From the NCBI GenBank assembly GCA_965231075.1, contig OZ246412.1:321587-385586 (forward strand): a stretch of 64,000 nucleotides of DNA, in the 5' to 3' direction. This document shows positions 1-60,673 of this stretch, one piece after another (within the stretch, counting starts at the first letter, position 1; every line of letters begins with the position of its first letter). Below the pieces are notes generated by a model. That model worked only from the letters and a program-made list of their open reading frames with translations. It had not been told where the DNA came from and ran no database searches. A program made the position numbers and the translations under genes. This DNA is from an uncultured Candidatus Saccharibacteria bacterium (GTDB taxonomy: Bacteria; Patescibacteriota; Minisyncoccia; RBG-13-40-8-A).

Positions 1-380
1 CTTTCCAGTTCCTTCAACTAAGGAAGTCTTAGTTTTGTATCCACTTTCCCGAGATTTCTCTCGACGTTATTATCTTACTACCCCTAATAAATTTTTCTTG
101 CGAAAAATTTACCAGGTTTGGGCTGTTCCCTTTTCGCTCGCCACTACTTGGGGAATTACTTTTATTCTCTGTTCCTTCGGCTACTGAAATGTTTTACTTC
201 GCCGAGTTCGCTCTCCGACGCAAGGTCGGAGTAATTCCAGTTTATTGGAATTGAGTTTCCTCATTCGGAGATTCCCGGATCATAGGTTGCTACACACCTC
301 CCCGAGACTTATCGCAGTTACGCCACGTCCTTCTTCGCCTTCTAGTGTCAAGGCATCCACCATATACCCTTACTAACCTG
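1..380 (-). rRNA. rrl: 23S rRNA, 5' portion; the gene runs off the window start
   Basis: Reverse complement reads GGTTAGTAAGGGTATATGGTGGATGCCTTGACACTAGAAGGCGAAGAAGGACGTG...GTAGTGGCGAGCGAAAAGGGAACAGCCC, matching the conserved 23S 5' domain of E. coli (GGTGGATGCCCTGGCAGTCAGAGGCGATGAAGGACGTG...AGTAGCGGCGAGCGAA). Confidence 0.85.
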
Positions 381-520
381 CTTAATTTAGCTGGCAATTT
401 ATAGACATTACTACTTAGACTTTAATTGCTTTAATTTAACTAATTTTACTCGATATAAAATGCTTTATTTTTTTTGTTTACTTGATGTCGAAACATATTC
501 AGTTATCAAGGTTCAAGATT

Positions 521-2414: not shown

Positions 2415-2442
2415 TTGACAAATTCTGTGTATATGTTATAAT
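2415..2442 (+). promoter_or_regulatory. Sigma-70 promoter TTGACA-N16-TATAAT of the TPM cassette
   Basis: TTGACA at 2415-2420, TATAAT at 2437-2442, then AAGGAGGT Shine-Dalgarno 6 nt before GTG 2470. Confidence 0.6.
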
Positions 2443-2469
2443 TAGGTCAATACCAAAAGGAGGTATCGC

Positions 2470-3219
2470 GTGAAAAAAACATTTGCTCTCTTTATCTTCG
2501 TTCTTCTGGTGTTCTCTGGAGCGGTTGCTCAGCAATTCCCAAAGAACACGGGCATGGTCAACGATTTTGCTAACATCATTCCTGATGATGTTCAGCAACA
2601 ACTCGAAGAAAACCTGAGAGAATTCAACGGTAAAACGTCGATTGAAATTGCCGTGGTAACGGTAAATTCTCTGGACGGCATGGTCATCGAAGACTACGCC
2701 GCAAGGCTCTTCAAAGAGTGGGGCATTGGCAAAAAAGACAACGATAACGGCGTTTTATTTCTCGTTGCAATGCGGGAGAAAAAAATGCGAATCGAAACCG
2801 GTTACGGTATCGAACCATTTTTAACCGATGCAACTTGCGGCAGGATAATCAATGACCAAATCGTACCGATCTTCAAGAGCGGCGCATACGCTTCGGGCAT
2901 TGCCCTAGGAATAAAAAAAATCATTGAAAAACTCGAGCAAGCCCACACAGAAGAACCTGAAGCACTGACTTCCGGCGACAAAAAAGTGAGGACGTTTAAA
3001 AATAACAGCGAAGTGGTTCTTATTGTCGTTCTCGTAATATTGTTGCTTGTTATAGTCGTGTTCGTTGCCTGGTTTGATGATGGCACGGGCGGTTCTAACG
3101 ATTCCGGCGGGGGGTTCATCAGTGGTAGTGGCTTTTCTTCGGGAGGTTCCGACTCTGGCGGAGGATTCAGCTTTGGTGGTGGATCGTCCGGAGGCGGAGG
3201 AGCCAGTGGTGGTTGGTAA
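2470..3219 (+). CDS. TPM-domain (TLP18.3/Psb32/MOLO-1, YgcG-like) protein with signal peptide, C-terminal TM helix and Gly/Ser-rich tail. GC-rich alien cassette.
   Basis: Motif GVLFLVAMREKKMRIETGYGIEPFLTD matches the TPM consensus. GC content is far above the surroundings. Perfect SD, GTG start. Confidence 0.7.
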   Translation: MKKTFALFIFVLLVFSGAVAQQFPKNTGMVNDFANIIPDDVQQQLEENLREFNGKTSIEIAVVTVNSLDGMVIEDYAARLFKEWGIGKKDNDNGVLFLVAMREKKMRIETGYGIEPFLTDATCGRIINDQIVPIFKSGAYASGIALGIKKIIEKLEQAHTEEPEALTSGDKKVRTFKNNSEVVLIVVLVILLLVIVVFVAWFDDGTGGSNDSGGGFISGSGFSSGGSDSGGGFSFGGGSSGGGGASGGW

Positions 3220-3325
3220 GTATTTAGAACGTTTAGGGGAAATCGCTTCGGCGATCTCCCCTATTTTTTTCTCGACCTTACGTTGGGATTTTGTCTTTAG
3301 ATTTTTGGCATGATAGAATCAATTT

Positions 3326-4666
3326 ATGGAAAATTATAAAGAATATTTCAAGAACAAAAAAATCATCATTATGGGACTCGGGCTACTTGGCCGAGGCATT
3401 GGCGTGGCAAAATTTTTGGCAAAACATGGCGCCGAACTTTTAATCACTGACTTGAAAACTGAACAACAGCTCGCTTCTTCCTTAAAACAACTCAAAAAAT
3501 TTAAAAACATTAAATATATTTTGGGTCAACATCGCATTGAAGATTTTCAACAAGGAGATATGTTAATCAAGGCCGCAGGGGTTCCGTTGGATTCAATTTA
3601 TCTTGCCGAGGCAAGAAAAAACAATATTCCCATCGAAATGGATGCTTCCTTGTTTGCTAAATTTACTAAAGCAAAAATTATTGGCATCACTGGCACGCGT
3701 GGAAAATCAACCGTAACACAAATGATTTATCATGGGCTGAAAAAATATTACAGAAAAGGAAATGTATTTTTGGGTGGAAATGTACGTGGACTTGCGACTT
3801 TGCCACTACTCGAAAAAGTTAAAGATAATGATGTTGTTGTTCTCGAGTTAGATTCTTGGCAATTACAAGGTTTTGGCGAAGCCAAAATTAGCCCACAGAT
3901 TGCCGTATTTACAACTTTTATGAACGACCACATGAATTACTATAAAAATGACATGCAAAGATATTTTGACGACAAGGCAAAAATTTTCGAACACCAAACC
4001 GAAAAAGATTTTCTAGTAATCAGTGAACAAGCGATGTTACAAATTAAAAAAAGGACCCAATACGGAAAAATAAAAAGTAAAATAACCGTTGTAAATGAGG
4101 ATGCAATTAGAAACCTAAAAACTAAATTAATTGGTGAACACAACAAAACTAATATTGCTTTAGCGGTTGAAGTTCTAAAATTAATGAAATTAAATCAAAA
4201 GCAAATTAAACAAGCAATTGCCACTTATCCTGGTGAGCCCGGACGATTACAAATGATTTTAAAAAGAAATGGAGTTGCTTATTACAACGACAATAATGCT
4301 ACTTCACCTGACGCTTGCGTAGCTGCCTTAAATTCTCTTTATAAAAACGAAAAAAATATTGTTTTGATTTGTGGTGGAGCTGACAAGGAATTTAATTTTA
4401 ATGATATGTTAGAAGTTATCGCCAATACAACTAAAAATGTTGTATTCATAAAAGGCACAGCAACTGATAAGATTTTAAATATTTTGCCGAAAGACTTTCC
4501 TGAATATGTTGTTGTTGATTCAATGCCATTGGCAGTTAAAGAAGCGAGAAAATCTGTTAAAAAAGGAGACGTTATTTTATTGTCTCCTGGTGCCGCATCA
4601 TTTGGTGTTTTCAAAAACGAATACGACCGCAATGATCAATTTGTAAAATACGTTAAAAAATATTGA
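3326..4666 (+). CDS. murD: UDP-N-acetylmuramoyl-L-alanine--D-glutamate ligase
   Basis: N-terminal IMGLGLLGRGIG Rossmann motif, GITGTRGKST P-loop, Mur ligase C-terminal domain. No SD; likely -10 TAGAAT 6 nt before the ATG. Confidence 0.85.
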   Translation: MENYKEYFKNKKIIIMGLGLLGRGIGVAKFLAKHGAELLITDLKTEQQLASSLKQLKKFKNIKYILGQHRIEDFQQGDMLIKAAGVPLDSIYLAEARKNNIPIEMDASLFAKFTKAKIIGITGTRGKSTVTQMIYHGLKKYYRKGNVFLGGNVRGLATLPLLEKVKDNDVVVLELDSWQLQGFGEAKISPQIAVFTTFMNDHMNYYKNDMQRYFDDKAKIFEHQTEKDFLVISEQAMLQIKKRTQYGKIKSKITVVNEDAIRNLKTKLIGEHNKTNIALAVEVLKLMKLNQKQIKQAIATYPGEPGRLQMILKRNGVAYYNDNNATSPDACVAALNSLYKNEKNIVLICGGADKEFNFNDMLEVIANTTKNVVFIKGTATDKILNILPKDFPEYVVVDSMPLAVKEARKSVKKGDVILLSPGAASFGVFKNEYDRNDQFVKYVKKY

Positions 4667-4691
4667 CAAATATCGCATATTATGATAAAAT
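4663..4691 (+). promoter_or_regulatory. Sigma-70 promoter TTGACA-N17-TAAAAT for the small membrane protein cassette
   Basis: TTGACA 4663-4668, TAAAAT 4686-4691, followed by GAGGAGGT SD and TTG start at 4724. Confidence 0.55.
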
Positions 4692-4723
4692 AAAGTAGTT
4701 CGAATCAATTAGAGGAGGTTCGT

Positions 4724-5017
4724 TTGATCGAACAACTGTGTGCTGTTTTCTCTGTTTCGGACGTGGTGGCGCAAGTGATCGGGTCGGTCAAGACCTGGAT
4801 CATCAAGATGGATCGGGCGTTCTTGCGTAAGGACCCCTTTCTACTGCTGACGGCGGTATCCTATGTCGTCGCGATGGCTATCGGGACGATGACGGGGCTG
4901 CTGTTCAGCAACGAACTCACCCAATTCATCGTCTTCTTATCGGCGTGGTTGGTGGTGTTCGTGGGCTTGGGCGTCACCTATTGGTTTTTCTTCGCCAAGC
5001 TGGCGCGGAAAAACTAG
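4724..5017 (+). CDS. Small (97 aa) GC-rich integral membrane protein of unknown function; alien cassette
   Basis: Three predicted TM helices, G/C-ending codon bias, perfect SD, TTG start, own terminator. Confidence 0.55.
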   Translation: MIEQLCAVFSVSDVVAQVIGSVKTWIIKMDRAFLRKDPFLLLTAVSYVVAMAIGTMTGLLFSNELTQFIVFLSAWLVVFVGLGVTYWFFFAKLARKN

Positions 5018-6398: not shown

Positions 6399-7424
6399 TT
6401 ATTTAATACCCTCTCCGCCGAACCATTTTTTGTATAGCGTGTCGTAAAGTCCGCTCTCTTGGACAGTTAAGATTGCACGATTTATTTTCTCTCTTAATGG
6501 GCTGTTGTTTTCTAGAACAAAACCGTAATCTTGTTTATCAAATAACTCTCCTACAATTTTAACTTTTCCCGCTCCTTCATTAAGGGCATAATATTCTAAA
6601 ATTGGTGCATCAAACACAACGACTTCAACTTCGTTGTTTTTTAATTTTTCGTATGCTTCTTCTATCTTAATCACAGGTACAATTATCGCTCCCAAACTTT
6701 TTAATACCGGTTCAGTGGTTGTCCCTTGGACCGTAGCAACAACTTTTCCCGACAAATCTTTGGGGCCCTCGATATTAAGTTTTATTTTTCTGGTTGTTAA
6801 AAATGCCGTAAATTGTCCGATAATCAACCCTAGCGCAGCCAGTTTAACTAATTGTCCGAATTGAACAACAATAAACCCCGCCCAAGATTGAACCTTGTAA
6901 ACTGTTATCATTGCCGGAGAACCAAGAATCATTGATAAAGAAAACCAAATTGCCTGAAAAATTCCTGGAAAATACGTTTTTGAAAATGTTTCGGCACTTT
7001 TTTCTGTTAACCACAACACATTACCAAAAACAATAATTATTAGAGCCAAAAGAAGTATTGGTTTTAATAATTTTTTATATCCTTGTGTAAAAAATGTCTT
7101 TATCGTACTACCAATATTTACTCTCGATCTGTCTTTTGACAACAGAATACGCAACCCGGAATGAAAGGTTGCGTGTGAAAAATCAATAACTTCTTCGCGT
7201 TTCTCGTTAATCGTTATCGAAGCCATAGCAATGTCTGCCTTTTTGTCGGCAACAAGTGGAATCAATTCTTGAAAATTATATTTGCTATATTCAAAATCTG
7301 TTTGGATTTCCTTGGCAATCATTTCCCATAATTCAATTTCAAACCCAGAATATTTTCCATCTTTCTCAAAAACGAAAGGAGAAAGATTTGTCACCGCGAT
7401 TTTTAATTTATTTGTCATATACAT
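6399..7424 (-). CDS. Ionotropic-glutamate-receptor-like ligand-gated channel: a split periplasmic amino-acid-binding (SBP_bac_3) domain interrupted by an M1-pore-M2 channel module
   Basis: Lobe 1 (LKIAVTNLSPFVFEKDGKYSGFEIELW...ADIAMASITINEKREEVIDFSH), TM/pore segment, lobe 2 (GKVVATVQGTTTE...VVVFDAPILEYY...YGFVLENNSPLREKINRAILTVQESGLYDTLYKKWFG). Confidence 0.65.
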   Translation of the reverse strand: MYMTNKLKIAVTNLSPFVFEKDGKYSGFEIELWEMIAKEIQTDFEYSKYNFQELIPLVADKKADIAMASITINEKREEVIDFSHATFHSGLRILLSKDRSRVNIGSTIKTFFTQGYKKLLKPILLLALIIIVFGNVLWLTEKSAETFSKTYFPGIFQAIWFSLSMILGSPAMITVYKVQSWAGFIVVQFGQLVKLAALGLIIGQFTAFLTTRKIKLNIEGPKDLSGKVVATVQGTTTEPVLKSLGAIIVPVIKIEEAYEKLKNNEVEVVVFDAPILEYYALNEGAGKVKIVGELFDKQDYGFVLENNSPLREKINRAILTVQESGLYDTLYKKWFGGEGIK

Positions 7425-7440
7425 TTATTATATCATAAAC

Positions 7441-7470
7441 AAAAAAATCCCGTAATGTGGGATTTTTAAG
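7441..7470. terminator. Bidirectional hairpin terminator between tRNA-Ala and the channel gene
   Basis: AATCCCGTAATGTGGGATT flanked by A7 and T5. Confidence 0.55.
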
Positions 7471-7544
7471 TGGTGGACCATAGGAGAATCGAACTCCTGT
7501 CCTCCGGATGCAAACCGGGAGCTCTACCACTAAGCTAATGGCCC
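7471..7544 (-). tRNA. tRNA-Ala (anticodon UGC), CCA encoded
   Basis: GGGCCAT acceptor with G3:U70, anticodon loop TTTGCAT, T-arm GGAGTTCGATTCTCC, 3' CCA. Confidence 0.85.
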
Positions 7545-7556
7545 TCAAATAAAATT

Positions 7557-7630
7557 TGCGCGTGCATGGACTCGAACCATGGACCTCGTCATTATCAGTG
7601 ACGCGCTCTAACCGCCTGAGCTACACGCGC
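7557..7630 (-). tRNA. tRNA-Ile (anticodon GAU), no encoded CCA
   Basis: GCGCGTGTAGCTCAGGCGGTTAGAGCGCGTCACTGATAATGACGAGGTCCATGGTTCGAGTCCATGCACGCGC; the classic rRNA spacer tRNA. Confidence 0.85.
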
Positions 7631-7638
7631 GAAAAATC

Positions 7639-7797
7639 TTAGGCCTTGCCTAAAATTTTAAACATTCCTGTTCCACAAACTGGACAAACACCTTTTAATG
7701 CTCTTCTGTCCCCTCCCTTTCCTTTCATTTTAACTTCTTTGGCGTCTTTCATTTCTTGTTTTGCTCTACACTTAACACAATATGCAATATCTGCCAT
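7639..7797 (-). CDS. 52-aa C4 zinc-ribbon protein encoded between 16S and tRNA-Ile (MADIAYCVKCRAKQEMKDAKEVKMKGKGGDRRALKGVCPVCGTGMFKILGKA)
   Basis: Below the 60-aa ORF-track cutoff; found by hand translation. CxxC...CxxC, highly basic. Own promoter TTGATT-N18-TATAAT (about 7841-7870, minus strand). Stop lies 4 nt from tRNA-Ile. Confidence 0.5.
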   Translation of the reverse strand: MADIAYCVKCRAKQEMKDAKEVKMKGKGGDRRALKGVCPVCGTGMFKILGKA

Positions 7798-7870
7798 AAA
7801 AATAAAATTTATTAATTATTAATAAACTTACTTTATTATACAGCTAAAATAATAATAAAATCAAGCACAA

Positions 7871-7906
7871 ATAAAAAAATCGTCTAATAGACGATTTTTT
7901 TATTTC
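7871..7906 (-). terminator. Hairpin terminator downstream of the 16S 3' end
   Basis: AATCGTCTA-AT-AGACGATT followed by T7ATTT on the minus strand (and A-run/T-run on both sides). Confidence 0.55.
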
Positions 7907-8042
7907 GAATTCTTTATGGTTTTCCCGATACTTATTATTTGTTTAGTACAAATAATTAAAAAACTTTTTATGTTACTGCCTTATCGGCAAATAATCGACT
8001 CTTACTTAATAAATTTTATTTACTAAGTAAAAATATTTTCCA

Positions 8043-9503
8043 TCCACAGGTTCCCCTACGGATGCCTTGTTATGACTTCACCCTAGTCACCGAATTTACC
8101 TTAGGACTCTGAAATCAGAGCACGTCAGGTACTCCCGGCTTCTCTGGTGTGACAGGCGGTGAGTACAAAGCTTGAGAACGTATTCACCGCAGCGTAGCTG
8201 ATCTGCGATTACTAGCGATTCCGGCTTCATGGGGTCGAATTGCAGACCCCAATCCGAACTGGGGCCGATTTTGATGAGATTGGCTCCATCTTACGACTTG
8301 GCGACTCATTGTATCGGCCATTGTAGCGCCTGTGTTGCCCAGGGTATCAAAGGGCCATGCTGATTTGGCGTCATCCCTACCTTCCTCCTCGTATCACGAG
8401 GCAGTCTTGTCTGACACTTATAACAGACAACAGGGGTTGCGCTTGTTACCCGAATTAACGGAGCAACTCACGCCACAAGCTGACGACAACCATGCAGCAC
8501 CTGTTCTAGTGTCCTTGTAGAAGACCCGACTTTCATCAGGCTTTCACTAGAATTTCAAACCCTGGTAAGGTTCTCCGCTTACCGTCGAATTAAACCAGAC
8601 GCTCCACCGCTTGTGCAAGCTCCCGTCTATTCCTTTGAGTTTTAGTCTTGCGACCGTACTTCCCAGGCGGAGTACTTAACGCGTTAGCTTCGTCACCTGA
8701 AGGGTCGATACTTCAGACAACTAGTACTCATAGTTTAGGGCGTGGACTACAAGGGTATCTAATCCTTTTTGCTCCCCACGCTTTCGTCTCTCAGGGTCAG
8801 AAATGCACCAGCCAAATGCCTTCGCCTTTGGTATTCCCTAAGGTATCAACGGATTTCACCCCTACTCCTTAAGTTCTATTGGCCTCTCACACTCTCTAGT
8901 CTGACCGTTTCCCCTGCAGTTTCGATGTTGAGCATCGAAATTTAACAGAAGACGTATCAAACGCCCTACAGACGCTTTACGCCCAGTAATTCCGGACAAC
9001 GCTTGGGGTACTCGTATTACCGCTGCTGCTGGCACGAGTTTAGCAACCCCTTATTCATAGAGTACACTCAAAAATTGCTCCTCTATAAAAGTACTTTACA
9101 TCCCGAAGGACTTCTTCATACACGCGGCGTCGCTCCATCAGACTTTCGTCCATTGTGGAAGATTCTCGACTGCAGCCTCCCGTAGGAGTAAGGCCCGTAT
9201 CTCAGTGCCATCGTTGGGGAACACGCTCTCACGCCCCCTACCCGTCATCGCCTTGGTAAGCCATTACCTTACCAACTAGCTGATAGGACGCAGGCCACTC
9301 TCTCACCATCTTATCTTGCGATAAGACTTTACTCTTGCGAGACCATCGGAAATTATCTTGCCTTTCGGCAAGTTATGTCCGAGTCAGAGGGATGTACCTA
9401 CGTATTACTAACTCGTTCGCCATGGGTCTAAACCCATTCGACTTGCATGCCTAATCCACGCCGCCAGCGTTCGTCCTGAGCTAGGATCAAACTCTCAATA
9501 AAG
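8043..9503 (-). rRNA. rrs: 16S rRNA, complete, about 1.46 kb
   Basis: 5' end AGAGTTTGATCCTAGCTCAGGACGAACGCTGGCGG (reverse complement at about 9470-9503). 3' end ...GTCATAACAAGGCATCCGTAGGGGAACCTGTGGATGGA (8043-8080). The 530 loop reads GTGCCAGCAGCAGCGGTAATAC (9014-9035), carrying the C-to-A change in the 515F site reported for Patescibacteria. Confidence 0.9.
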
Positions 9504-9759
9504 ATTCAGAAGTAGATTGGCCGAAACGGCCTGCCTACTTCTGATTGTATCAGAAAAACCATAAAAAATTCGATTCCTGACTAACTCACACAAACTACTG
9601 TAAATTACTTAAACATATTTAATTTATAGTGTACCTGTTTTTGATTAAAAAACAGAGCTCAATTTTTGAACATGGTTCCAAAACTAAACTCTGTTTTAAA
9701 GTACGTTTGTTGTTTTCGCTCTTTTACATAAAAATTATATTAATGATTATGTGCTTACA

Positions 9760-9788
9760 AATATATATCAGAAAAATTCACGTGTCAA
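9760..9788 (-). promoter_or_regulatory. Probable 16S promoter TTGACA-N17-TATATT
   Basis: Minus strand CCTTGACACGTGAATTTTTCTGATATATATT about 260 nt upstream of the mature 16S 5' end. Confidence 0.45.
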
Positions 9789-10577: not shown

Positions 10578-10904
10578 TTAAATCTTTAAATCGTCAACGA
10601 CGCTATCAACGTCTCTTCCTTTTGGTTCCACAACTCTGCGGCCACCTTCTGGTTCTTCGATTTTAAGATTGACACGAGCATTGTTCTTGGCACCAACTAT
10701 CCTCAATAAAGTTCGAATAGCTCTTGCAGTTGAACCTCCACGACCGATTAAAGCTCCCATATCTTCTGGGTTAACCTTTAAGGTCAAGAGTACGCCCATT
10801 TCATCAACATTTCTATCAATCTTTATGTCTTTGGGATTGTTAACAATTCCTTCGACTATTGATTCAAGAAATTCCTGATCTTTTGGTTTTGACATGTTCT
10901 TCAA
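10578..10904 (-). CDS. KH-domain RNA-binding protein (YlqC/UPF0109 family)
   Basis: LIGRGGSTARAIRTLL GXXG-loop KH motif. Located between rpsP and trmD. Confidence 0.7.
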   Translation of the reverse strand: MKNMSKPKDQEFLESIVEGIVNNPKDIKIDRNVDEMGVLLTLKVNPEDMGALIGRGGSTARAIRTLLRIVGAKNNARVNLKIEEPEGGRRVVEPKGRDVDSVVDDLKI

Positions 10905-10992: not shown

Positions 10993-11418
10993 TTATTTCC
11001 CGACGTTATCAGTCGGGACCCCGACCTCTTCGGGCGTCGGGGCTGTTTTTGTTTCCGTGTCAACAATTACTGGCTCTTCGGTTTTTGGTTCTTCTTTGGG
11101 AGTTTCGGCTATTGCTGTCGGTGCGACTGCTGGTTTTTCTGATTCCGCTTTCTTTTTCGGTTTCCACGCTTTCACTTTTGATTTATCAATAATTTTTTCA
11201 TCAACCAACATATTGTGTATGGTTTCTGAAAGTTGTGCGCCTTTGGAAATCCAATGTAAAATTCTTTCTTTATTAAAACTTTTTTGTTTTTGAACTTTAT
11301 TGTATGAACCTAATAATTCAAGAAATTTTCCTTGTGGTCTAAATGTGTGTTCAACCAAAACAACCCGGAAACTCGGGCTATTCTTTTTTCCAACTTTTTG
11401 TAATCGTATTTTTAACAT
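10993..11418 (-). CDS. rpsP: 30S ribosomal protein S16 with a K/E/P/T-rich C-terminal extension
   Basis: MLKIRLQKVGKKNSPSFRVVLV N-terminus. Promoter TTGTCA-N17-TATATT at 11428-11456 places the transcription start within a few nt of the ATG (leaderless). Confidence 0.85.
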   Translation of the reverse strand: MLKIRLQKVGKKNSPSFRVVLVEHTFRPQGKFLELLGSYNKVQKQKSFNKERILHWISKGAQLSETIHNMLVDEKIIDKSKVKAWKPKKKAESEKPAVAPTAIAETPKEEPKTEEPVIVDTETKTAPTPEEVGVPTDNVGK

Positions 11419-11427
11419 ATTAAAATC

Positions 11428-11456
11428 AATATAACAGATAATTAATTTTGTGACAA
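11428..11456 (-). promoter_or_regulatory. rpsP promoter giving an essentially leaderless mRNA
   Basis: -35 TTGTCA (11451-11456), -10 TATATT (11428-11433), ATG at 11418. Confidence 0.5.
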
Positions 11457-13053: not shown

Positions 13054-13082
13054 TTGCCTATATCTATTTTTAGTGTTAAAAT
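13054..13082 (+). promoter_or_regulatory. dnaE promoter TTGCCT-N17-TAAAAT; the -10 lies 6 nt before the ATG (leaderless)
   Basis: -35 13054-13059, -10 13077-13082, ATG 13089. Confidence 0.45.
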
Positions 13083-22208: not shown

Positions 22209-22487
22209 TTAAAGACCGAGTCGTTTTTTGAGTTCCTCCTCACCCTCAATCCTGATAGGATCAATCTTAAACGGTTCGCCCTCTAGTGGTTCACAGATAC
22301 TTTCTCCTGATCTGCGTAAATCACAGAGTTTGCCGTTTATCCCGTGTTCCAGGACTTTTGGGCTTACCCCCGTCCCCATGTCGATGTCTTCGACGGTTTC
22401 ACCGTGTACACTGCAACAGGAATAGGTTCCATCCGGTTCTGGCTTGAAAAACAATCGATACATGCAGGTAAAGCACTGTCCTTTCAT
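22209..22487 (-). CDS. 92-aa Cys-rich protein of unknown function, translationally coupled to thyX (ATGA overlap); GC-rich
   Basis: MKGQCFTCMYRLF...YSCCSVHGETVED...; seven Cys, GC-rich codons. Confidence 0.45.
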   Translation of the reverse strand: MKGQCFTCMYRLFFKPEPDGTYSCCSVHGETVEDIDMGTGVSPKVLEHGINGKLCDLRRSGESICEPLEGEPFKIDPIRIEGEEELKKRLGL

Positions 22488-23200
22488 TTCGAGTACCCCT
22501 TTGTTGCCATTTCCTGAAAATCCTTAAACAAAGATGGTGCTTGCTGCATCACGATATCGTAAAACAGTTTATGGAGCCGCCGAATCTCCCACTCGGCATC
22601 TTGAGCCAATCGAAGATTAAACAGATACCGCAGAGATCTGGCGTTGCAATAAGCGTAGCATGGCGTGCACCAGAAAACCGGCATGTTTTTCCTCGAATCT
22701 TGCTTTGTGGCACCCAGAGCGATTTTGGAATCATATTCCGCGATTGCTCTTTTGGCGGTTTTTTCATCGATGCTCAGAAGTTGTTTGACCGAATCTTCAT
22801 CTTCGACGTAATGATAGGTATTGTAAACAAATCTGTTCTGACTTGCCGAGATAAATCTCGTGCTTCTGAATGTCCATCCAATACCGATTCTGTGCCGAAC
22901 CCATTGGTTCTGTAGACTTTTGGTAATACCGTCTACGTCAAAGACGAAAGATAGTGCCTCAAGAGGAGTGTGATGCCCCTTCTTGATTAGCCACTCGTTC
23001 AGTCTTAGGTCGTCGATTATTGTCCCCAAAGATTCGTGGCTTCTTCGTGCGGTGAAGGCCGGAAGAGTCTCGGGTGTAACCAACTCGATGTACCTGCCAA
23101 CCGGTTGTGTCATTGCCACCAATTCAGCAACCGGTTCGACGTTTCTGAACAACCCTTCCCTCAAATGTTTCCATTTGTCGATGTCCGCGTATTCGATCAT
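22484..23200 (-). CDS. thyX: Flavin-dependent thymidylate synthase
   Basis: RHRIGIGWTFRSTR (ThyX RHR...S signature), 238 aa, GC-rich. Confidence 0.8.
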   Translation of the reverse strand: MIEYADIDKWKHLREGLFRNVEPVAELVAMTQPVGRYIELVTPETLPAFTARRSHESLGTIIDDLRLNEWLIKKGHHTPLEALSFVFDVDGITKSLQNQWVRHRIGIGWTFRSTRFISASQNRFVYNTYHYVEDEDSVKQLLSIDEKTAKRAIAEYDSKIALGATKQDSRKNMPVFWCTPCYAYCNARSLRYLFNLRLAQDAEWEIRRLHKLFYDIVMQQAPSLFKDFQEMATKGYSK

Positions 23201-23201
23201 G

Positions 23202-23663
23202 TTAAACCTCCTCAGTATCGGTGATTTGTATCAATTCGATGCCAACTCCGGCAAAAAGTTCGGAAACCTGCGGAAACTCTTCTTCATAGCGCTTGACGTA
23301 AAAAACTCTTTTGACGCCCAGGTTGTTAAGATGCTTGGCACAGTCGTAACACGGCGAATAAGTGCAATAGAGATCGCAATCCGATAAATTAATGCCATTT
23401 TTCGCGGCATTTACAATGGCATTCATTTCTGCGTGAGCACCTCTGCACCTTTTTGATCCTGAAGGAAGAAATTTTCCATCGACTTTTTTGGCGCACCCCA
23501 CCGCGTCACAGTGTTTATCGCCGGCAGTTGGACCATTATAGCCAACCTGCAAGAGTTGCTTTCCACGAACAAAAACGGCGCCAATTTGATAAAGCTGACA
23601 TCTTGATTTTTTTGCCAGAAGATTAACCATCTCCACGAATAGTTTCTGCCAAGAAATAGCCAT
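23202..23663 (-). CDS. dCMP deaminase (cytidine/deoxycytidylate deaminase family)
   Basis: HAEMNAI zinc motif and SPCYDCAK second zinc ligand pair; 153 aa; GC-rich. Confidence 0.8.
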   Translation of the reverse strand: MAISWQKLFVEMVNLLAKKSRCQLYQIGAVFVRGKQLLQVGYNGPTAGDKHCDAVGCAKKVDGKFLPSGSKRCRGAHAEMNAIVNAAKNGINLSDCDLYCTYSPCYDCAKHLNNLGVKRVFYVKRYEEEFPQVSELFAGVGIELIQITDTEEV

Positions 23664-25458: not shown

Positions 25459-26034
25459 TCAAAGCTTAACGCTGAAACTCGCTTCTCCGGTCCAGCCAGA
25501 GTTGATCGTGTCCCAAGCGAACCAGAACTGGATCGCCCCGAACTTGACCGTAGGACCGATTTGGAAGAAAATCGTCTTTTCTCCAAACGTCCCGCAACCG
25601 GACCAGCGGAGACCCCAGCCGTCCTTGCCAACCGTGTGACGAACGAACCAGATCCCCTTACCATCGCGGTCGATCCCAACTTCGTTGACGAACGCCCCGA
25701 ACAGGCCGAAGGCCGAAATCACGGGCGTCACATCCATGGTCACGGAATTGACCAATTCCTTGGTCTTCTTCGCGGCCAGATTGAAGTGGGGACCAATGGC
25801 TACCTGGACCGATCCGATCTTGCCCAGCTTGAATGCCGGGGGACCGAATTTGGTCAGCAGAGACCCGGACCCGGGCCAGGTCAGCATGAAGTAGTAGTTC
25901 ATGCCCTTAGGCGCGTCGTGGAAATACCACGCATTCGCCTTCGAAGGAAAGACCTGGAACTGAGCCCGGTCTTCCGCCACGGCCATCGGAACCATGAACA
26001 GGACGAGCAGAACAACGATCATAAGATTTTTCAT
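25459..26034 (-). CDS. GC-rich secreted beta-rich protein (191 aa, signal peptide, aromatic/Gly-rich; ends ...FSVKL); alien cassette
   Basis: AGAGGAG SD, consensus promoter at 26074-26102, G/C codon bias. Alternating aromatic strands suggest a beta-barrel or beta-sandwich. Confidence 0.55.
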   Translation of the reverse strand: MKNLMIVVLLVLFMVPMAVAEDRAQFQVFPSKANAWYFHDAPKGMNYYFMLTWPGSGSLLTKFGPPAFKLGKIGSVQVAIGPHFNLAAKKTKELVNSVTMDVTPVISAFGLFGAFVNEVGIDRDGKGIWFVRHTVGKDGWGLRWSGCGTFGEKTIFFQIGPTVKFGAIQFWFAWDTINSGWTGEASFSVKL

Positions 26035-26073
26035 CAGAAACTCCTCTCTTGTTTAGTTGTAGGGTACTCTTAT

Positions 26074-26102
26074 ATTATACACCCGATTACATGATTTGTC
26101 AA
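26074..26102 (-). promoter_or_regulatory. Perfect consensus sigma-70 promoter TTGACA-N17-TATAAT
   Basis: Minus strand TTGACAAATCATGTAATCGGGTGTATAAT. Shares the CGGGTGTATAATAT core with the promoter at 60645-60673. Confidence 0.6.
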
Positions 26103-31928: not shown

Positions 31929-31987
31929 ATAAAATATATCCTATCACAATTTTAATCCCTGATCAATAAGTTATCCCCATGTTTCGT

Positions 31988-32015
31988 TTGACTTTCTCAT
32001 AAATTTTGTTACACT
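31988..32015 (+). promoter_or_regulatory. Candidate promoter TTGACT-N16-TACACT for the GC-rich non-coding island
   Basis: 31988-31993 TTGACT, 32010-32015 TACACT. Confidence 0.35.
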
Positions 32016-32019
32016 TAAA

Positions 32020-32476
32020 TTAGCGGTCCGATGGAGGAGGTGATCCAAGCATCTGACTTCGGTCCGATCCCACTGAAAGGAGAGTTATGACAATTTGATT
32101 GTCTAAGGTCGAGGCATTCGGTAAAATCCCACTGACCGGCCAAAGGAAGAGAGGAGGATACTGTTTGCTTGCGTAGGTGTACCTTCAAAGACATCGCCCT
32201 AATATAGGGGCACCGAGGATTGGTCTTAGGACCTCCGGACAATAGTCCCAGTGTATCGCGTTTCTTCGGAAATGCGAATGACTAGAGGATGAGTCCCCTC
32301 GAACAAAAGAGGCAATTGCCTAACGTTCACTTTTGCGTGCCGTGTGCACTGCATAAAGTACTCAAGAACCGTTAGGGTTCGCCTTACCTCCGGGTAAAAA
32401 TTAAAACCCGACAGGTCGCACCATAGGGGCCAAAAAAACAGGGCTTCTCCCGGCGGGAGAAGCCCTTTATTATTTT
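32020..32476 (+). ncRNA. Candidate structured ncRNA of unknown class (about 450 nt, GC-rich, no ORF longer than 75 aa)
   Basis: GC is far above the local background, as for rRNA and tRNA in this genome. UUCG-loop hairpins on the plus strand (GAC-UUCG-GUC; CGCGUUUC-UUCG-GAAAUGCG). Internal repeat AUCCCACUGA..GG..AAAGGA. Ends in a strong bidirectional terminator GGGCTTCTCCCG-GCG-GGAGAAGCCC (32441-32465). Begins with GGAGGAGGTGATCCAAGC. Confidence 0.4.
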
Positions 32477-32493: not shown

Positions 32494-33762
32494 TTATTTC
32501 CACGGACCCCAAAAATAATTTTTTTTACCCTTACGAATAATAACAAGGTCGTGTAGCCTGTCTTTTTTTGTTAAAACCATTCCCGTGTCGTTAACAAGAT
32601 TACCGTTTATAGTTACTGAATTGCTCAAAATAAACTCTTTCGCCTCCCTTTTAGATTCGACGACTTTGGCATCAACCAAAAGGTCAATCGGTTGAATACT
32701 TTCTTTGTTTTTATCAATTTCGAAATGAAATGGGCTACTAAACGCATTATAGGTATCTTTTTTTGAAAGCTTTTTAATGTCTCCCCCAAACAGAACATTG
32801 GTAATCTCCTCTGCCTTTTTTAGTTCTTTTTCTCCGTGAATCATTTTGGTTAATTCTCGGGCCAAAACCTTTTGCGCAACTCGATTTTGAGGATTCTTTG
32901 CTACTTCTTCGGTTTCTAATCTTGAGATCTCTTCGTTTGATAAAAACGTAAAATATTTTATAAAATTAATCACTTCTTTGTCGTCGACATTGATCCAGAA
33001 TTGATAAAATTGGTACGGGCTAGTTTTTTTGGCATCAAGCCAGATTGCCCCAGTTTCAGTTTTCCCAAACTTAGAACCATCAGACTTGGTAATCAGGGGA
33101 ATGGTTAGTGCGAACACCTCTTTTTGTTCTGTTTTACGAATTAAATCAATTCCCGCCGTAATATTTCCCCACTGATCACTTCCACCAATTTGGAGTTCAC
33201 AATTGTATTTTTTATAAAGATTCAAAAAGTCATACGACTGCAAAAGCATATAACTAAACTCTGTAAAAGAAATTCCCGTCTCAATTCGTGACTTAATCGA
33301 TTCCTTGGCCAACATTGCACCAATTGAAAAATGTTTACCAACATCACGAATAAAATCAATCATTTTAACTTCGCCCAGCCAATCAATATTGCCAACAACT
33401 TTTGTTCTTCTGCCATCAAATGACATTGTATTTTCTATCTGCTTTTTAATCTCTTTTGACCAGGTGTCTACTGTTTTTTTGGAATTTAAGACTCTTTCTG
33501 ATTTTTTTCCGCTCGGATCACCAATTAAGCTTGTGCCGTTACCTAAAAGCACAATTGGTTGATGACCAGCCATTTGAAATCGTTTTAATGTCAATAGTGG
33601 CAAAAGATTCCCAACATGCAAACTGTCTGCGGTTACATCAAAACCACAATACAAAACACACGACTTTTCCAATCGTTTTCTTAAAACATCAATATCGGTA
33701 GTTTGATTTAATAATCCCCTAAATTTTAAATCTTCTAATATATGCATGATTTTATTATACAA
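32494..33762 (-). CDS. tyrS: Tyrosyl-tRNA synthetase
   Basis: LYCGFDVTADSLHVGNLLPL (HIGH region), KFGKT (KMSKS), C-terminal S4 domain. Confidence 0.85.
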   Translation of the reverse strand: MYNKIMHILEDLKFRGLLNQTTDIDVLRKRLEKSCVLYCGFDVTADSLHVGNLLPLLTLKRFQMAGHQPIVLLGNGTSLIGDPSGKKSERVLNSKKTVDTWSKEIKKQIENTMSFDGRRTKVVGNIDWLGEVKMIDFIRDVGKHFSIGAMLAKESIKSRIETGISFTEFSYMLLQSYDFLNLYKKYNCELQIGGSDQWGNITAGIDLIRKTEQKEVFALTIPLITKSDGSKFGKTETGAIWLDAKKTSPYQFYQFWINVDDKEVINFIKYFTFLSNEEISRLETEEVAKNPQNRVAQKVLARELTKMIHGEKELKKAEEITNVLFGGDIKKLSKKDTYNAFSSPFHFEIDKNKESIQPIDLLVDAKVVESKREAKEFILSNSVTINGNLVNDTGMVLTKKDRLHDLVIIRKGKKNYFWGPWK

Positions 33763-38376: not shown

Positions 38377-38417
38377 ATGTTTTTAATTATATCACAAAAA
38401 TGATACAATAAAAACAT

Positions 38418-45506: not shown

Positions 45507-45529
45507 GATTTTATCTTAACAGATTTCTG

Positions 45530-52075: not shown

Positions 52076-52104
52076 TTGACAAAAGGCAACCAAAATGTTA
52101 TACT
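52076..52104 (+). promoter_or_regulatory. Promoter TTGACA-N17-TATACT of the 52150 cassette
   Basis: Followed by AAGGAGGT SD 5 nt before the ATG. Confidence 0.55.
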
Positions 52105-52149
52105 TATGGTGTAGTTGAAATACACTACTATTCTGAAAAGGAGGTCGAT

Positions 52150-52545
52150 ATGACCAAGAAAATCCTTTACGCTCTTTTCATCGTGTTCGTGGTCGGTATC
52201 CTGGCCAACGCCGGGTACCACATCGGCGAGATCTGGGGTTCGGTCCAGGGGGACGTCGTCGACCCCACGTTCGTCCAGAGCTTTCTGGCCGGACCGGACA
52301 AGGTTCTCGATTTCGAGAAGGACATCGATTCGACAGTCCAGGGAATCGTCTTCACGTTACTGGGAATCCCCTTCCTGGTCATCGTGCTTCTTCTCTGGAT
52401 CGTCTACTTCCTGTTCTTCGGAGAGCTGTTCCGGTTCATCGGGGTTCTCCCGTCGATCCTGGCCACGCTGGCCAGCATCGTGATCGCGGTGATCTGCCTC
52501 AAGCGGAGCCGCGAGAACAAGACCACAACCACGACCACGACCTGA
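52150..52545 (+). CDS. GC-rich 131-aa membrane protein with a poly-Thr C-terminus; alien cassette
   Basis: About 3 TM helices, ...ENKTTTTTTT, G/C codon bias. Confidence 0.55.
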   Translation: MTKKILYALFIVFVVGILANAGYHIGEIWGSVQGDVVDPTFVQSFLAGPDKVLDFEKDIDSTVQGIVFTLLGIPFLVIVLLLWIVYFLFFGELFRFIGVLPSILATLASIVIAVICLKRSRENKTTTTTTT

Positions 52546-52569
52546 TCCTTCGGTCCTCGGAGGGGGACC

Positions 52570-52612
52570 AAATGGGCCAAGCGCAAGCGCTTGGCCCTAT
52601 TTTATTTCTTTA
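52570..52612 (+). terminator. Terminator of the 52150 cassette
   Basis: GGGCCAAGCGC-AA-GCGCTTGGCCC then TATTTTATTTCTTT. Confidence 0.7.
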
Positions 52613-56756: not shown

Positions 56757-56785
56757 ATTTTATCAGTTTTTTCGTAGAAAAACAA
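56757..56785 (-). promoter_or_regulatory. secA promoter giving a leaderless mRNA
   Basis: -35 TTGTTT, 17-nt spacer, -10 TAAAAT, 6 nt, ATG. Confidence 0.45.
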
Positions 56786-58072: not shown

Positions 58073-59866
58073 TTATATCGCAGTTTTGTCTGCACCTTTG
58101 GGATACCAGTTTAATTCTGATTTATTAATTGTGAAAATCGATTCTGATTTTGCGCCTGAAGATAAAAACTGGTTAGCGGTTATATTTAACCAGTATAATT
58201 TCCCTGTGTCCGCACCGGTTACTTCTAATTCATAAACTTTTGGCGAATCAGAATATTTGTAATAATTTGAAGTCTTGAATGCATCCCGAACCTGTGGTTT
58301 TACTGTTTTAATACTTTTCCAACCCCCTAGATGTCCATACATATTAAAAATTTCTGGGTTTAGAAATAATCTCTTATATCCAAATTGATTAATAATAAAA
58401 ACATCAAAATCGCCTTCGGCTCTAATTAAATCACCCTCCTTTAATCCATAATCTTCTGGTTTGGTCTGAATTGTAGTATCAGGTAGTTCGGTTGGTTCAT
58501 CAAAAATAGTTGTGTAAGCCGAAAGAGTAAATTGGGTAGCTGGATCATTATTCGTAAAACCACTATTGCGAGACTGATTTGAAACAATAATCGTTACAGA
58601 ATCAAAGTTATCCCTGAAGTTGGGGATTTTTATCGTGCCTTGTTGGTTGATTAGATTTAAGTTTCCAATAATTGGTCCCTTGGATTGATCAATATAATCG
58701 ATTACATAAAGAACGTTAAAATTTCCGCCATTAATTTCTCCTTCAAATTCCAATTCCAGGTCTTTGGTGGTGGTGCCACGCTCTTGGCGATTGGTAAATT
58801 TATACCAATGTGGCGCCCAATCTTTAACATCTTGAGAAATATTGATTACATTTGCCGAGACAATTCCGTAGCTTATTGGCGAAACAAATAAATTTCCTTT
58901 TAAATAGGGGTTTTTGTATCCATATATTCCTCCCAGTAAGATTTTATCGTTTAAATAGCTAGCAACTGTCCATTGATTGAATATTTTTGAAAAATTAACA
59001 TTGTATCCTTTATCAATTAAGGCTTGCTCTAAACTAGCAATTCCGGTTTTGTTGTTTTGCGCAGTCATGCCAATAATTTCTTCTCCGTATTGTTCGGCAA
59101 TATAGTGTCCCAAAACATTAACTGATGGATAATCAATTCTTTCTCCCTTCCATTCGGTTAACGAATCAAAGGGATAAGATAAAAAATCATCAACCCTTCT
59201 TTCTAAATTACTTCCCACATAATCGCTATCATAACCACAAAGTGTTGGAGCGTATTCACTTCTTAATTCGTTAAGCCAAATATCGTCTCGAACTCCCCTT
59301 TCGCGCTCTTTCTGGTTCCAGCTAATTAAGTGTTGCATTTCGTGAGCCAGTAAACTATAAATCAGTGGATTGGTAATTTGATTGGCATTTAAATAAATCA
59401 TCTCGCGCATATTTGACCTTGGTTCGTGGGTTTGATTTTTTTCGTCTTTCTCGTTGAAATATCCTCCTGCGGTCGCATCAAGCTTGGTTAATAAAATTGT
59501 TATCTTGGCATCGTCATCGATTCCCGGGTTCCATTCTGAACCAAAAAAATAAGTCAACGTAGGATAAATTATTTGATCAAATTCCTCTGCCAATAAATTA
59601 ATATCACCCAAATAATCCTGTTGTTGTAACAGCGTTAAATTGTCCCAATATTCATCTTCTATATAAAAATAAGCATTGTCAGAAATTTTTCTCAAAGTCG
59701 CTGAAGTTTCTATGCGATTATTATAATCGTATTCTGGATCTAGATAGAATCCTACGTTCTTATTTAAATCATCAATAGCGAAAGCACACTGAAAGAAAAC
59801 AATAAAAACCCCACCCGAAACAAGTAAGGTTAAAACTATTCTCTTTTTTATTGAAAAGAATTTCAT
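58073..59866 (-). CDS. Secreted HExxH zinc-metallopeptidase-like protein
   Basis: Signal peptide/TM helix; LLAHEMQHLISWNQ. Confidence 0.5.
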   Translation of the reverse strand: MKFFSIKKRIVLTLLVSGGVFIVFFQCAFAIDDLNKNVGFYLDPEYDYNNRIETSATLRKISDNAYFYIEDEYWDNLTLLQQQDYLGDINLLAEEFDQIIYPTLTYFFGSEWNPGIDDDAKITILLTKLDATAGGYFNEKDEKNQTHEPRSNMREMIYLNANQITNPLIYSLLAHEMQHLISWNQKERERGVRDDIWLNELRSEYAPTLCGYDSDYVGSNLERRVDDFLSYPFDSLTEWKGERIDYPSVNVLGHYIAEQYGEEIIGMTAQNNKTGIASLEQALIDKGYNVNFSKIFNQWTVASYLNDKILLGGIYGYKNPYLKGNLFVSPISYGIVSANVINISQDVKDWAPHWYKFTNRQERGTTTKDLELEFEGEINGGNFNVLYVIDYIDQSKGPIIGNLNLINQQGTIKIPNFRDNFDSVTIIVSNQSRNSGFTNNDPATQFTLSAYTTIFDEPTELPDTTIQTKPEDYGLKEGDLIRAEGDFDVFIINQFGYKRLFLNPEIFNMYGHLGGWKSIKTVKPQVRDAFKTSNYYKYSDSPKVYELEVTGADTGKLYWLNITANQFLSSGAKSESIFTINKSELNWYPKGADKTAI

Positions 59867-59891
59867 TAATTTAAATACAACAAATTACGTC

Positions 59892-59964
59892 GCCTGAGGA
59901 GCTTGGAAGGTAAAAACCCCAATACTTGGTATTGAATGGGTACCGGTTCCAGAGCTCCTCAGGC
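59892..59964 (-). promoter_or_regulatory. Large 5'-UTR hairpin (12-bp perfect stem) in the leader of the metallopeptidase gene
   Basis: GCCTGAGGAGCT...AGCTCCTCAGGC with internal substructure; candidate promoter TTGACA-N18-TATACT at 59983-60012 (minus strand). Confidence 0.4.
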
Positions 59965-60029
59965 AACACAATCTCCTAATTAAGTATAACCGAAATAAAT
60001 AATGAGTGTCAAACCCCGACGCAAGGTCG

Positions 60030-60079: not shown

Positions 60080-60610
60080 CTATTTCAGAAAATTCCACCA
60101 AAGTTCGAAAGTGCAGACGAGGAGCATTAGGGCCGTACTAATCAGAATTTCCTTTCTGATTTTGGTCGGATAACCCCACTTTCTGACCCATGACTTGCCC
60201 CACGGATAGAAGAAGGACGCATAAGGATAAGTTTCATCGTTTTTCTGGAAACGATCGATCATCATGTGTACGAACCAGAACGTAAACGGAACCCACCATA
60301 AACGGTGAAAAAATATTAATCCGCACACAAACGACATGATTGCTCCGGGCCAAAGATGAAACCAGCATGCAGGGATTTTTACTCCCGGAGACGGCTTGCC
60401 AACATCACCGCCCCTGAGAAATCGCGGAATACGCACGAAAAAAATGTCCGCGACATAACTCGGCGAGGTGAAGTGATCGGCAAAGTCCATTACCGAACCC
60501 CAGAAATAAATGAGTGCGAGCTGGAGAATAGAAAACTCCATCCCGAACCCGAAAAGCAGAATCGCCCGAAACGCGAACGTAATGTCAAAGTGCGTCATTG
60601 GTGCGGCCAT
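60080..60610 (-). CDS. GC-rich 176-aa Trp/Phe-rich membrane protein; alien cassette
   Basis: AAAGGAGGTG SD 5 nt before the ATG; perfect consensus promoter at 60645-60673. Confidence 0.55.
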   Translation of the reverse strand: MAAPMTHFDITFAFRAILLFGFGMEFSILQLALIYFWGSVMDFADHFTSPSYVADIFFVRIPRFLRGGDVGKPSPGVKIPACWFHLWPGAIMSFVCGLIFFHRLWWVPFTFWFVHMMIDRFQKNDETYPYASFFYPWGKSWVRKWGYPTKIRKEILISTALMLLVCTFELWWNFLK

Positions 60611-60644
60611 CCTGCACCTCCTTTCTTAAATTCTAATAATATAT

Positions 60645-60673
60645 ATTATACACCCGAAACACAATTATGTCAA
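60645..60673 (-). promoter_or_regulatory. Perfect consensus promoter TTGACA-N17-TATAAT
   Basis: Minus strand TTGACATAATTGTGTTTCGGGTGTATAAT, a near-twin of the promoter at 26074-26102. Confidence 0.6.

Follow-up and report, generated by a model that had tools for sequence, protein, structure and literature searches.

A Paceibacterota 16S rRNA without an anti-Shine-Dalgarno sequence, and protein genes with predicted leaderless and coupled initiation

The 3' end of the 16S ribosomal RNA (rRNA) and the start regions of the protein genes were analyzed in a 64-kb stretch of contig OZ246412.1, which is called the window here (the whole stretch of 64,000 nucleotides). The 16S rRNA gene (9502..8028, minus strand) matches Rfam family RF00177 over model positions 1-1533 without truncation (1397.7 bits, gathering score 50), which makes it a full-length small-subunit (SSU) match. 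Its size of 1475 nt is short, as is typical for bacteria of the candidate phyla radiation (CPR). Helix 45 (CAUCCGUAGGGGAACCUGUGGAUG, 8041..8064, minus strand) is recognized with an intact GGAA loop both by direct reading and, with maximal posterior probability, in a separate Rfam alignment of the 16S 3' end, where the stretch GGCAUCCGUAGGGGAACCUGUGGAUGG is preserved. The terminus of the RNA reads ...GUAGGGGAACCUGUGGAUGG-AAAAUAUUUUUACUUAG, and the final 13 positions of RF00177 (consensus GGAUcACCUCCUUu, GGAUCACCUCCUU) are filled by GAAAAUAUUUUUA at 8040..8028. In both the alignment and the direct reading, the tail GAAAAUAUUUUUACU (8026..8040, minus strand) takes the place of GAUCACCUCCUUA, the canonical tail that follows helix 45 in bacterial SSU rRNAs. 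The anti-Shine-Dalgarno (anti-SD) sequence CCUCC and the Era-binding GAUCA are both missing from this tail. CCUCC is also absent from the RNA strand between 7000 and 8200, from the whole 16S rRNA, and from the 383 nt of 23S rRNA present in the window (1-383, minus strand). A first-pass annotation had claimed, from the sequence alone, that the 16S rRNA lacks CCUCC and that none occurs between helix 45 and the transfer RNA (tRNA) gene for Ile; its coordinates proved correct, and the covariance-model comparison it had proposed gave the full-length match without a canonical tail. Since the anti-SD is replaced by an A/U-rich tail (GGA-AAAUAUUUUU-ACUUA), the ribosome is unable to pair with GGAGG-type sites.

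The 16S gene forms a self-contained transcription unit with its own promoter, leader/trailer stem, and terminator, so that the entire precursor is visible. A promoter scan located TTGACA-17-TATATT (11 of 12 matches) at 9760..9788 on the minus strand. Cofolding of leader and trailer gave a 27-bp processing stem of the RNase III type, with its 5' arm at 9547..9573 and its 3' arm at 7905..7931 (both minus strand), and a terminator scan placed a hairpin followed by a U-run, usable on both strands, at 7869..7905. Between helix 45 and the 3' arm of the processing stem CCUCC does not occur, and as the stem and the terminator bound the trailer, no anti-SD is hidden downstream; the idea that the trailer or another part of the rRNA conceals an anti-SD was thereby discarded. 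Directly 3' of the tail, cofolding also predicts a 17-bp hairpin (7998..8034, minus strand). In relatives this hairpin is variable, with both arms changing together, and it is missing in one of them (L100), and it therefore belongs to the spacer and not to the mature rRNA. The trailer further contains the motif GUCGAUU (7993..7999, minus strand). In a tail listing of 105 loci, GUCGAU(U) was found 20-60 nt 3' of helix 45 in nearly all of the ~100 Paceibacterota trailers (L019-L124), irrespective of whether an anti-SD was present, and it is probably a processing signal. No pairing partner for it was found in the 5' leader, where too few loci with both ends were available.

rRNA ends from metagenome-assembled genomes (MAGs) are frequently misassembled, and the A/T-rich tail resembles the neighboring spacer. 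A misassembled or truncated 16S 3' end, or a pseudogene, with a canonical tail on the real rRNA, was therefore weighed as an explanation. The complete SSU model match and the gene's own promoter, processing stem, and terminator argue against it. Moreover, a Logan assembly of a different sequencing run (SRR12133404; L134) is 100% identical over 8679..7584, that is, through helix 45, the tail, the trailer, and the next gene, and 33 distinct relatives, recovered from many metagenomes and MAGs, share the conserved tail AAWUAUUUUUACUUA. With an independent assembly and relatives that carry the same tail, an artefact is effectively refuted, and we give it a next to negligible probability. The closest named relatives are MAGs labelled Candidatus Paceibacterota, Candidatus Portnoybacteria, and "Patescibacteria group", at 94-97% 16S identity, and the source genome is a member of the Paceibacterota (Parcubacteria, CPR). 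A scan of species-representative genomes recovered the identical tail in three Paceibacterota/Patescibacteria MAGs (L005, L011, L015) and other tails without CCUCC in a Magasanikbacteria MAG (L009) and in a MAG labelled Saccharibacteria (L010).

To survey tails more broadly, metagenomes were scanned with the exact 26-nt helix 45, which gave the 105 usable 16S loci. CCUCC is missing from 79 of these, and the other 26 retain UCACCUCCUUU. The loci form an erosion gradient (UCACCUCC, UCACCUCA, UCACUUAU, UCAUUUAA, AAAUAU), with intermediate tails such as UCACCUCA, UUACCUCA, UCACUUAUUUUU, UCAUUUAAUU, and AAAUAUUUUU. All 43 loci with a 16S identity of at least 80.6% lack CCUCC, and anti-SD-bearing loci were met only at 80% identity or below. 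The segment UUUUACUUA is invariant across 34 distinct sequences, one of which, UCACCUCCUUUUACUUA, bears CCUCC, so that the lost CCUCC maps to the AUAU positions. This arrangement suggests that ACUUA marks a processing site just beyond the mature end, in which case the 16S rRNA would end in ...AUAUUUUU, with ACUUA immediately downstream.

Two further observations concern the rRNA genes themselves. In the decoding region (about 8074 and 8135-8147, minus strand) some bases of the 16S rRNA differ from the bacterial consensus: judging from CACCGCCUGUCAC and GUCAUAACAAGG, a U-A pair takes the place of C1409-G1491 (E. coli numbering), and GUACUCACCG is found in place of GUACACACCG. The U1409-type change is also seen in scattered other phyla. 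The rRNA genes are unlinked. The 16S unit is followed by a second unit, with its promoter at 7864..7835 and its terminator at 7467..7443, which comprises a 52-aa DUF5679 zinc-ribbon gene (7639-7797, minus strand) and the genes for tRNA-Ile and tRNA-Ala (7471-7630, minus strand), and the 23S rRNA lies beyond a further ~7 kb of protein genes, some of them on the opposite strand.

On the messenger RNA (mRNA) side, 59 open reading frames (ORFs) were called outside the rRNA and split by composition into 51 AT-rich genes (GC content <0.42) and eight GC-rich genes. A 5-mer Shine-Dalgarno (SD) motif between positions -20 and -5 is absent from all 51 AT-rich genes, and a 4-mer SD core is found in 3 of them, against 3.6 +/- 1.8 in shuffled sequences. 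The SD 5-10 nt upstream of most genes that characterizes canonical SD-led initiation is absent from this set. Duplex energies give the same picture. The mean free energy (dG) with the canonical tail is -2.93 kcal/mol for the 51 genes, compared with -2.96 +/- 0.29 for permuted tails, and this pairing is weaker than in windows inside genes (-3.6 to -4.4 kcal/mol). When the observed 13-nt tail was paired with the 25 nt upstream of the same genes, the value was -2.02 vs -1.98 +/- 0.37 for permuted tails; for the observed 21-nt tail it was -3.71 vs -3.48 +/- 0.22, with 16.5% of the permutations being equal or better. The claim that the AT-rich genes have no SD was thus upheld by the free-energy scans proposed along with it, in which neither tail outperforms its permutations: the AT-rich genes have neither an SD nor a substitute pairing.

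These energies also bear on the idea that the SD/anti-SD pair has merely shifted, the A/U-rich tail now pairing with an A/U-rich motif upstream of the genes. The conservation of the tail, with its invariant UUUUACUUA, does suggest some function, and the regions upstream of the genes are A/U-rich. However, pairing with the new tail is not enriched at either tail length, predicted leaderless mRNAs would offer no upstream region to pair with, and no variant SD/anti-SD pairs were found in 128 taxa lacking the anti-SD (Amin et al. 2018, PMC6107228). Because UUUUACUUA also follows the intact CCUCC of one relative, its more likely role is to mark the site of 3' processing. A replacement pairing was therefore rejected and is, in our estimate, very improbable.

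In part of the AT-rich genes, what stands out is the position of the promoter. A -10 box was scored as at least 5 of 6 matches to TAnnnT ending 6-9 nt before the start codon, and 14 of the 51 genes have one, against 4.4 +/- 2.0 in shuffles (maximum 12 in 2000). Eight of these 14 carry a TGn-extended -10 box, for which 0.21 would be expected from shuffles and which precedes 1 of 836 internal ATGs. The start codon is ATG in all 14 genes, and at 10-18 nt upstream of starts there are almost no -10 boxes. The -10 boxes quoted in the first-pass annotation are all at their given positions and all have an upstream TGn: TATATT at 11428..11433 (minus strand), 9 nt before the AUG of rpsP at 11418, whose identity as the S16 gene was confirmed and whose mRNA is predicted to be leaderless; TAAAAT at 13077..13082 (plus), 6 nt before the AUG of dnaE at 13089; TAAAAT at 56757..56762 (minus), 6 nt before the AUG of secA at 56750; TAAGAT at 45513..45518 (minus), 6 nt before the AUG of lysS at 45506; and TAGAAT at 3314..3319 (plus), 6 nt before the AUG of murD at 3326. 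For the ten genes it had named (these five with murC, rpmF, gatB, trxB, and serS), the identities were confirmed, and the N-termini align at positions 1-5 of their NCBIfam profiles, so that their start codons are sound. A divergent intergenic region of 41 nt (38377..38417) contains two back-to-back TGaTAyAAT boxes and nothing else; these lie 9 and 8 nt before the two AUGs and leave no space for a 5' untranslated region (UTR). Boxes and spacing have persisted in a syntenic genome at 74.5% identity (L130/L137), whose spacers have diverged. The conserved boxes support the earlier suggestion of leaderless mRNAs, which we likewise regard as a prediction from promoter position.

Among 27 candidate first genes, a box with at least 5 of 6 matches is present in 11 and one with at least 4 of 6 in 15. 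The start codons of the other 24 genes fall -4 to +15 nt from the stop codon of the preceding gene, with an overlap of 1 or 4 nt in seven cases. Two apparent long overlaps among these 24 tightly spaced genes were treated as mis-called starts.

For three minus-strand genes the longest-ORF start probably lies too far upstream, namely tyrS (33747-33762), a 341-aa solute-binding/ion-channel-like gene (7416-7424), and a KH-domain gene (10893-10904). The next in-frame ATG of tyrS and of the 341-aa gene has TATAAT 6-8 nt upstream (6 nt for the NCBI start of tyrS at 33747), which would make both additional leaderless candidates, and that of the KH-domain gene has a weak TAACAT (4 of 6) 8 nt upstream.

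Taken together, an eroded and unconstrained 16S tail in a cell that would initiate translation on leaderless mRNAs and by translational coupling is, judged from these sequence features, the likely explanation. Operon-first genes, whose AUG lies 6-9 nt downstream of a -10 or extended -10 box, would yield mRNAs that are leaderless or have leaders of 1-2 nt, and such mRNAs may be bound via their 5'-terminal AUG. Downstream genes that begin -4 to +15 nt past the preceding stop would most likely be translated by termination-reinitiation, that is, by coupling. SD-independent initiation would have come first and the anti-SD would have been lost afterwards, the tail, freed from SD pairing and from Era (whose loss here is putative), eroding under A/T mutation pressure. 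Era binds GAUCACCUCC and was lost in most CPR phyla (PMC10582724), which would take away the second constraint known to act on the tail. Under relaxed selection in an A/T-rich genome, a C-to-U/A series of tails such as the one observed would be expected.

The order of events is suggested by relatives that still have the anti-SD. Two of these (L028, L058), at 75-77% 16S identity, retain CCUCC in a similar gene neighborhood. In this anti-SD-bearing pair, dnaE is preceded by TGcTATACT 7 nt before its ATG (L058), and thrS (TATAAT), trmD (TGcTAATAT), and smc (TGgTATAAT) by boxes at 6 nt; no SD was found upstream of these four genes. A 5-mer SD was found in 2% of 81 crudely called ORFs adjoining anti-SD-bearing 16S genes. 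As the CCUCC-bearing relatives are already SD-free and, to judge from their promoters, leaderless, the anti-SD probably decayed after it had fallen into disuse, which points to SD-independent initiation as the older of the two traits.

Several points weigh against this account. Leaderless transcription and the transcript 5' ends are predicted from promoter geometry, and the mature 3' end of the 16S rRNA is likewise a predicted one. The statement on anti-SD-bearing relatives depends on the 81 ORFs near rRNA genes, and its positive control is weak (27 ORFs from non-CPR loci, 33% with an SD 5-mer). The window is part of a 626,281-bp contig, and one 16S gene is visible in it. A further counterpoint comes from the eight GC-rich genes (of 59 in all; GC content 0.44-0.57 and third-codon-position GC (GC3) 0.42-0.84, vs about 0.30). 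Seven of the eight have strong SDs (AAGGAGGU, GAGGAGGU) with a mean dG of -11.9 kcal/mol, yet without a complementary rRNA tail. Five of them stand alone behind consensus -35/-10 promoters and leaders of 27-45 nt; the window has 11 near-consensus TTGACA-N17-TATAAT promoters, of which 5 belong to these genes. Terminators follow the three stand-alone genes whose 3' flanks were read. Most of the products have hydrophobic N-termini. The earlier conclusion that the translation apparatus has dispensed with SD/anti-SD pairing consequently holds for the ribosome and for 51 of the 59 genes and does not extend to every transcript.

The GC-rich genes comprise a gene for a TPM-domain protein (2470-3219, unit 2415-3219, plus strand), a stand-alone ORF at 4724-5017 (unit 4663-5017, plus), a block encoding dCMP deaminase, ThyX, and a 92-aa ORF (22209-23663, minus), a 191-aa ORF (25459-26034, unit 25459-26102, minus), a stand-alone 131-aa ORF (52150-52545, unit 52076-52600, plus), and a further stand-alone ORF (60080-60610, unit 60080-60673, minus). 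The 131-aa product has no homologue among 5.8 billion proteins (an ORFan). The 191-aa gene (GC3 0.74) has a TTGACA-17-TATAAT promoter, a 39-nt leader with the SD GAGAGGAG, and a terminator. Its orthologues were found on four other contigs at 47-68% identity, one of them at the syntenic site in the 74.5%-identical genome; they have GC3 values of 0.63-0.80 against a GC background of 0.34-0.39 and keep the same promoter type, the GGAG-bearing leader, and the terminator. The GGAG core is retained in all five orthologous leaders despite differing neighboring bases. The deaminase-thyX block occupies the same site, equally GC-rich, in a Portnoybacteria MAG that is ~83% identical. Recent foreign or phage DNA was rejected as the source of the GC-rich genes, for orthologues in five genomes or contigs (L126, L130, L132, L135, L136) indicate long-term vertical retention; another match (L125) is the same genome as the window and uninformative on this point, and no relatives of the genes were found in viral contigs. 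At least two of the GC-rich units are thus old, vertically inherited residents of the lineage and no recent imports, and the division into "native" AT-rich and foreign genes from which the first-pass annotation had started is therefore doubtful. In relatives without the anti-SD, GGAGG or AGGAG likewise occurs upstream of 13 of 226 ORFs, compared with 3.0 expected, and most of these occurrences end 5-9 nt before the start.

The same motif recurs in a conserved structured noncoding RNA (ncRNA), whose 281-nt core (32033..32313, plus strand) lies in the gene-free region between tyrS and a 386-aa gene. The ncRNA carries AAGGAGGUGAUC. With GGAGGAGGUGAUCC, its 5' region complements the canonical 16S tail exactly, in a perfect match of 12 nt at 32035-32046 that also counts against a cell indifferent to SD sequences. 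Read on the minus strand (32046..32035), it is GGATCACCTCCT, a 12-nt copy of the canonical tail; as 0.14 such matches are expected even when one mismatch is allowed, a chance origin is unlikely. The promoter lies at about 31985-32015 and a shared terminator at about 32440-32475. Conservation of the region amounts to 89-94%, against 74.5% identity between the genomes, and L137, L138, L139 (in a minimal form of ~70 nt), and L140 carry the ncRNA at the syntenic site. Five syntenic relatives all keep a plus-strand -35/-10 promoter followed by AAGGAGG(U/G)GAU, and in one of them, GCA_043807255.1, the 16S gene on the same contig lacks the anti-SD. Two hairpins with C(UUCG)G loops, one of them showing a compensatory change, lie on the plus strand, which also folds better than the minus strand (consensus -63 vs -47 kcal/mol). 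The ncRNA contains 4-5 GGAG/GGAU sites, some of them in hairpin loops (for example, GACU-AGAGGAUG-AGUC), and a conserved GGAGGAUACUGU-UUG-CUU-GCG-UAG unit. Expression of GGAUCACCUCCU from the minus strand at 32046..32035 as an anti-SD acting in trans was considered and rejected, as the conserved plus-strand promoter, the UUCG loops, and the better plus-strand fold oppose it. What the ncRNA bears is thus an SD-like sequence instead of an anti-SD, and SD/anti-SD pairing is not restored by it. The region had no Rfam match above threshold, it contains no transfer-messenger RNA and no signature motifs of RNase P or the signal recognition particle, and a scan of viral contigs gave no matches to it. 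A TTATCCnCA box immediately upstream of the -35 element is conserved; a DnaA-box cluster near the ncRNA was looked for and showed no enrichment.

The SD-bearing genes, the enrichment of GGAGG, and the ncRNA together suggest that something still reads SD-like sequences. The persistence of the motif could be due to inertia, to a reader other than the ribosome for which the ncRNA serves as a decoy, to a second type of ribosome or, most speculatively, to an extracellular target. A second, canonical-tailed 16S rRNA encoded outside the window could serve the strong-SD genes as part of a separate ribosome population, and the conserved persistence of an SD-led gene class would be in line with this; PMC6107228 gives a precedent in Alteromonas, which keeps 16S genes with differing anti-SDs. 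However, all 43 close relatives lack the anti-SD, and the metagenome scan found no anti-SD-bearing 16S gene above 80% identity. CPR genomes of about 0.6 Mb normally have a single rRNA operon. Two ribosome populations are hence judged highly unlikely.

Alternatively, GGAGG(UGAUC) elements may be sites of a protein or RNA regulator for which the ncRNA at 32033-32313 acts as a decoy, ribosome recruitment itself being SD-independent. The GGAG core kept in all five leaders of the 191-aa gene amid differing flanks, the enrichment of GGAGG/AGGAG at canonical spacing in relatives without the anti-SD, and the multiple GGAG/GGAU sites of an ncRNA conserved well beyond its genomic background would fit such a regulator. 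On the other hand, no candidate reader was found: a CsrA-like ORF is missing from the window, and the exact UGAUC extension is unexpected for a CsrA-type site. Conservation of GGAG among close genomes could also be inertia, and the 16S type is known for two carrier genomes only (that of the window and GCA_043807255.1). We regard this regulator as unlikely, if less so than a second ribosome population. A vertically kept "SD regulon", in which promoter, SD, and GC-rich genes for likely secreted or membrane proteins belong together with the ncRNA and GGAGGUGAUC is read by something other than the 16S rRNA, is put forward just as tentatively. If it existed, the reader of GGAGGUGAUC would be a protein or RNA with the ncRNA as decoy, or canonical-tailed ribosomes such as those of a host cell; an RNA aimed at host ribosomes would leave the episymbiont itself immune.

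Leaderless and coupled initiation with a decayed tail, the account preferred here, has partial counterparts in known systems. Leaderless mRNAs are translated in Actinobacteria, Deinococcus, archaea, and mitochondria. As in those systems, the -10 element is found 6-9 nt ahead of the AUG, which would leave no 5' UTR. To our knowledge, bacteria in which leaderless mRNAs have been studied retain the anti-SD and rely on SDs for their leadered genes; the present genome differs in that the anti-SD is gone and leaderless initiation is predicted from its sequence. In Bacteroidota-type initiation the anti-SD is present on the ribosome but sequestered, and initiation is SD-independent. Genome-wide SD-less genes and A/U-rich start contexts are common to that type and to the lineage described here, and the anti-SD-bearing relatives resemble it; the difference is that CCUCC is retained there, as it is in L028 and L058, and is missing here. 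Mitochondria, with their leaderless mRNAs, likewise have an rRNA that lacks the anti-SD, as described for mammalian mitochondrial SSU rRNA (PMC10582724).

In bacteria, loss of the anti-SD has been described before. It was reported that 128 of 20,648 taxa lack CCUCCU and generally show neither SD motifs nor compensating variants (Amin et al. 2018, PMC6107228). The taxa discussed there and by Lim et al. 2012 (Chryseobacterium, Elizabethkingia, Riemerella, Blattabacterium, Mycoplasma, Carsonella) resemble the present case in that loss or mutation of CCUCCU is accompanied by no enriched SD and no compensating variant SD. They belong to other phyla, and many have point changes in a recognizable tail, whereas GAUCA and CCUCC are both gone here and the trait is found in every sampled relative down to ~81% 16S identity. 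Closer still is the work of Tsurumaki et al. (2022, RNA 28:1041; PMC9297842), in which the CCTCCT motif was detected in only 48% of Parcubacteria; those without it overlap the group lacking uL1, and SD helices are probably not formed in them. This subgroup is of the same lineage, the relatives of the present genome being named Paceibacterota and Portnoybacteria, and likewise lacks CCUCCU at the 16S end. The rplK-rplA region, with the gene for uL1, lies outside the window. The statement in the first-pass annotation that such a loss is rare is accordingly true of bacteria in general and fails for this clade, in which the loss is general, and for Parcubacteria, of which about half are affected. 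The core finding is not new in kind, as anti-SD loss itself is already published for about half of the Parcubacteria. That study gives the motif rate and the overlap with uL1 loss only; the replacement tail, the erosion series, and, on the mRNA side, the missing SDs, the predicted leaderless promoters, the coupling, and the residual SD-led genes are added here. The mRNA-side analysis and the proposed order of events are modest additions. A full-text search found no paper describing leaderless gene architecture in Parcubacteria, Patescibacteria, or the candidate phyla radiation.

The pairing of SD and anti-SD is the textbook route to the start site, and ribosomes that naturally lack the anti-SD reveal what the alternatives achieve alone. 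The window contributes a clean anatomy of an eroded tail within its surrounding pre-rRNA. The mRNA side matches the loss of the tail, and the gene layout of anti-SD-bearing relatives would set the order as disuse followed by decay. A conserved minority of strong SDs in a cell without a known reader presents a concrete and testable puzzle. In practical terms, gene callers that score ribosome-binding sites will misplace starts in such genomes, and 16S primers and annotations that presume a canonical 3' end will fail.

One further element of the window lies apart from these subjects. At 59870-60012 (minus strand), downstream of a TTGACA-18-TATACT promoter, there is a ~105-nt leader that contains a long stem (GCCUGAGGAGCU...AGCUCCUCAGGC) and for which Rfam gave no significant match. 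The leader precedes a 597-aa gene (58073-59866) and could be a riboswitch-like element.

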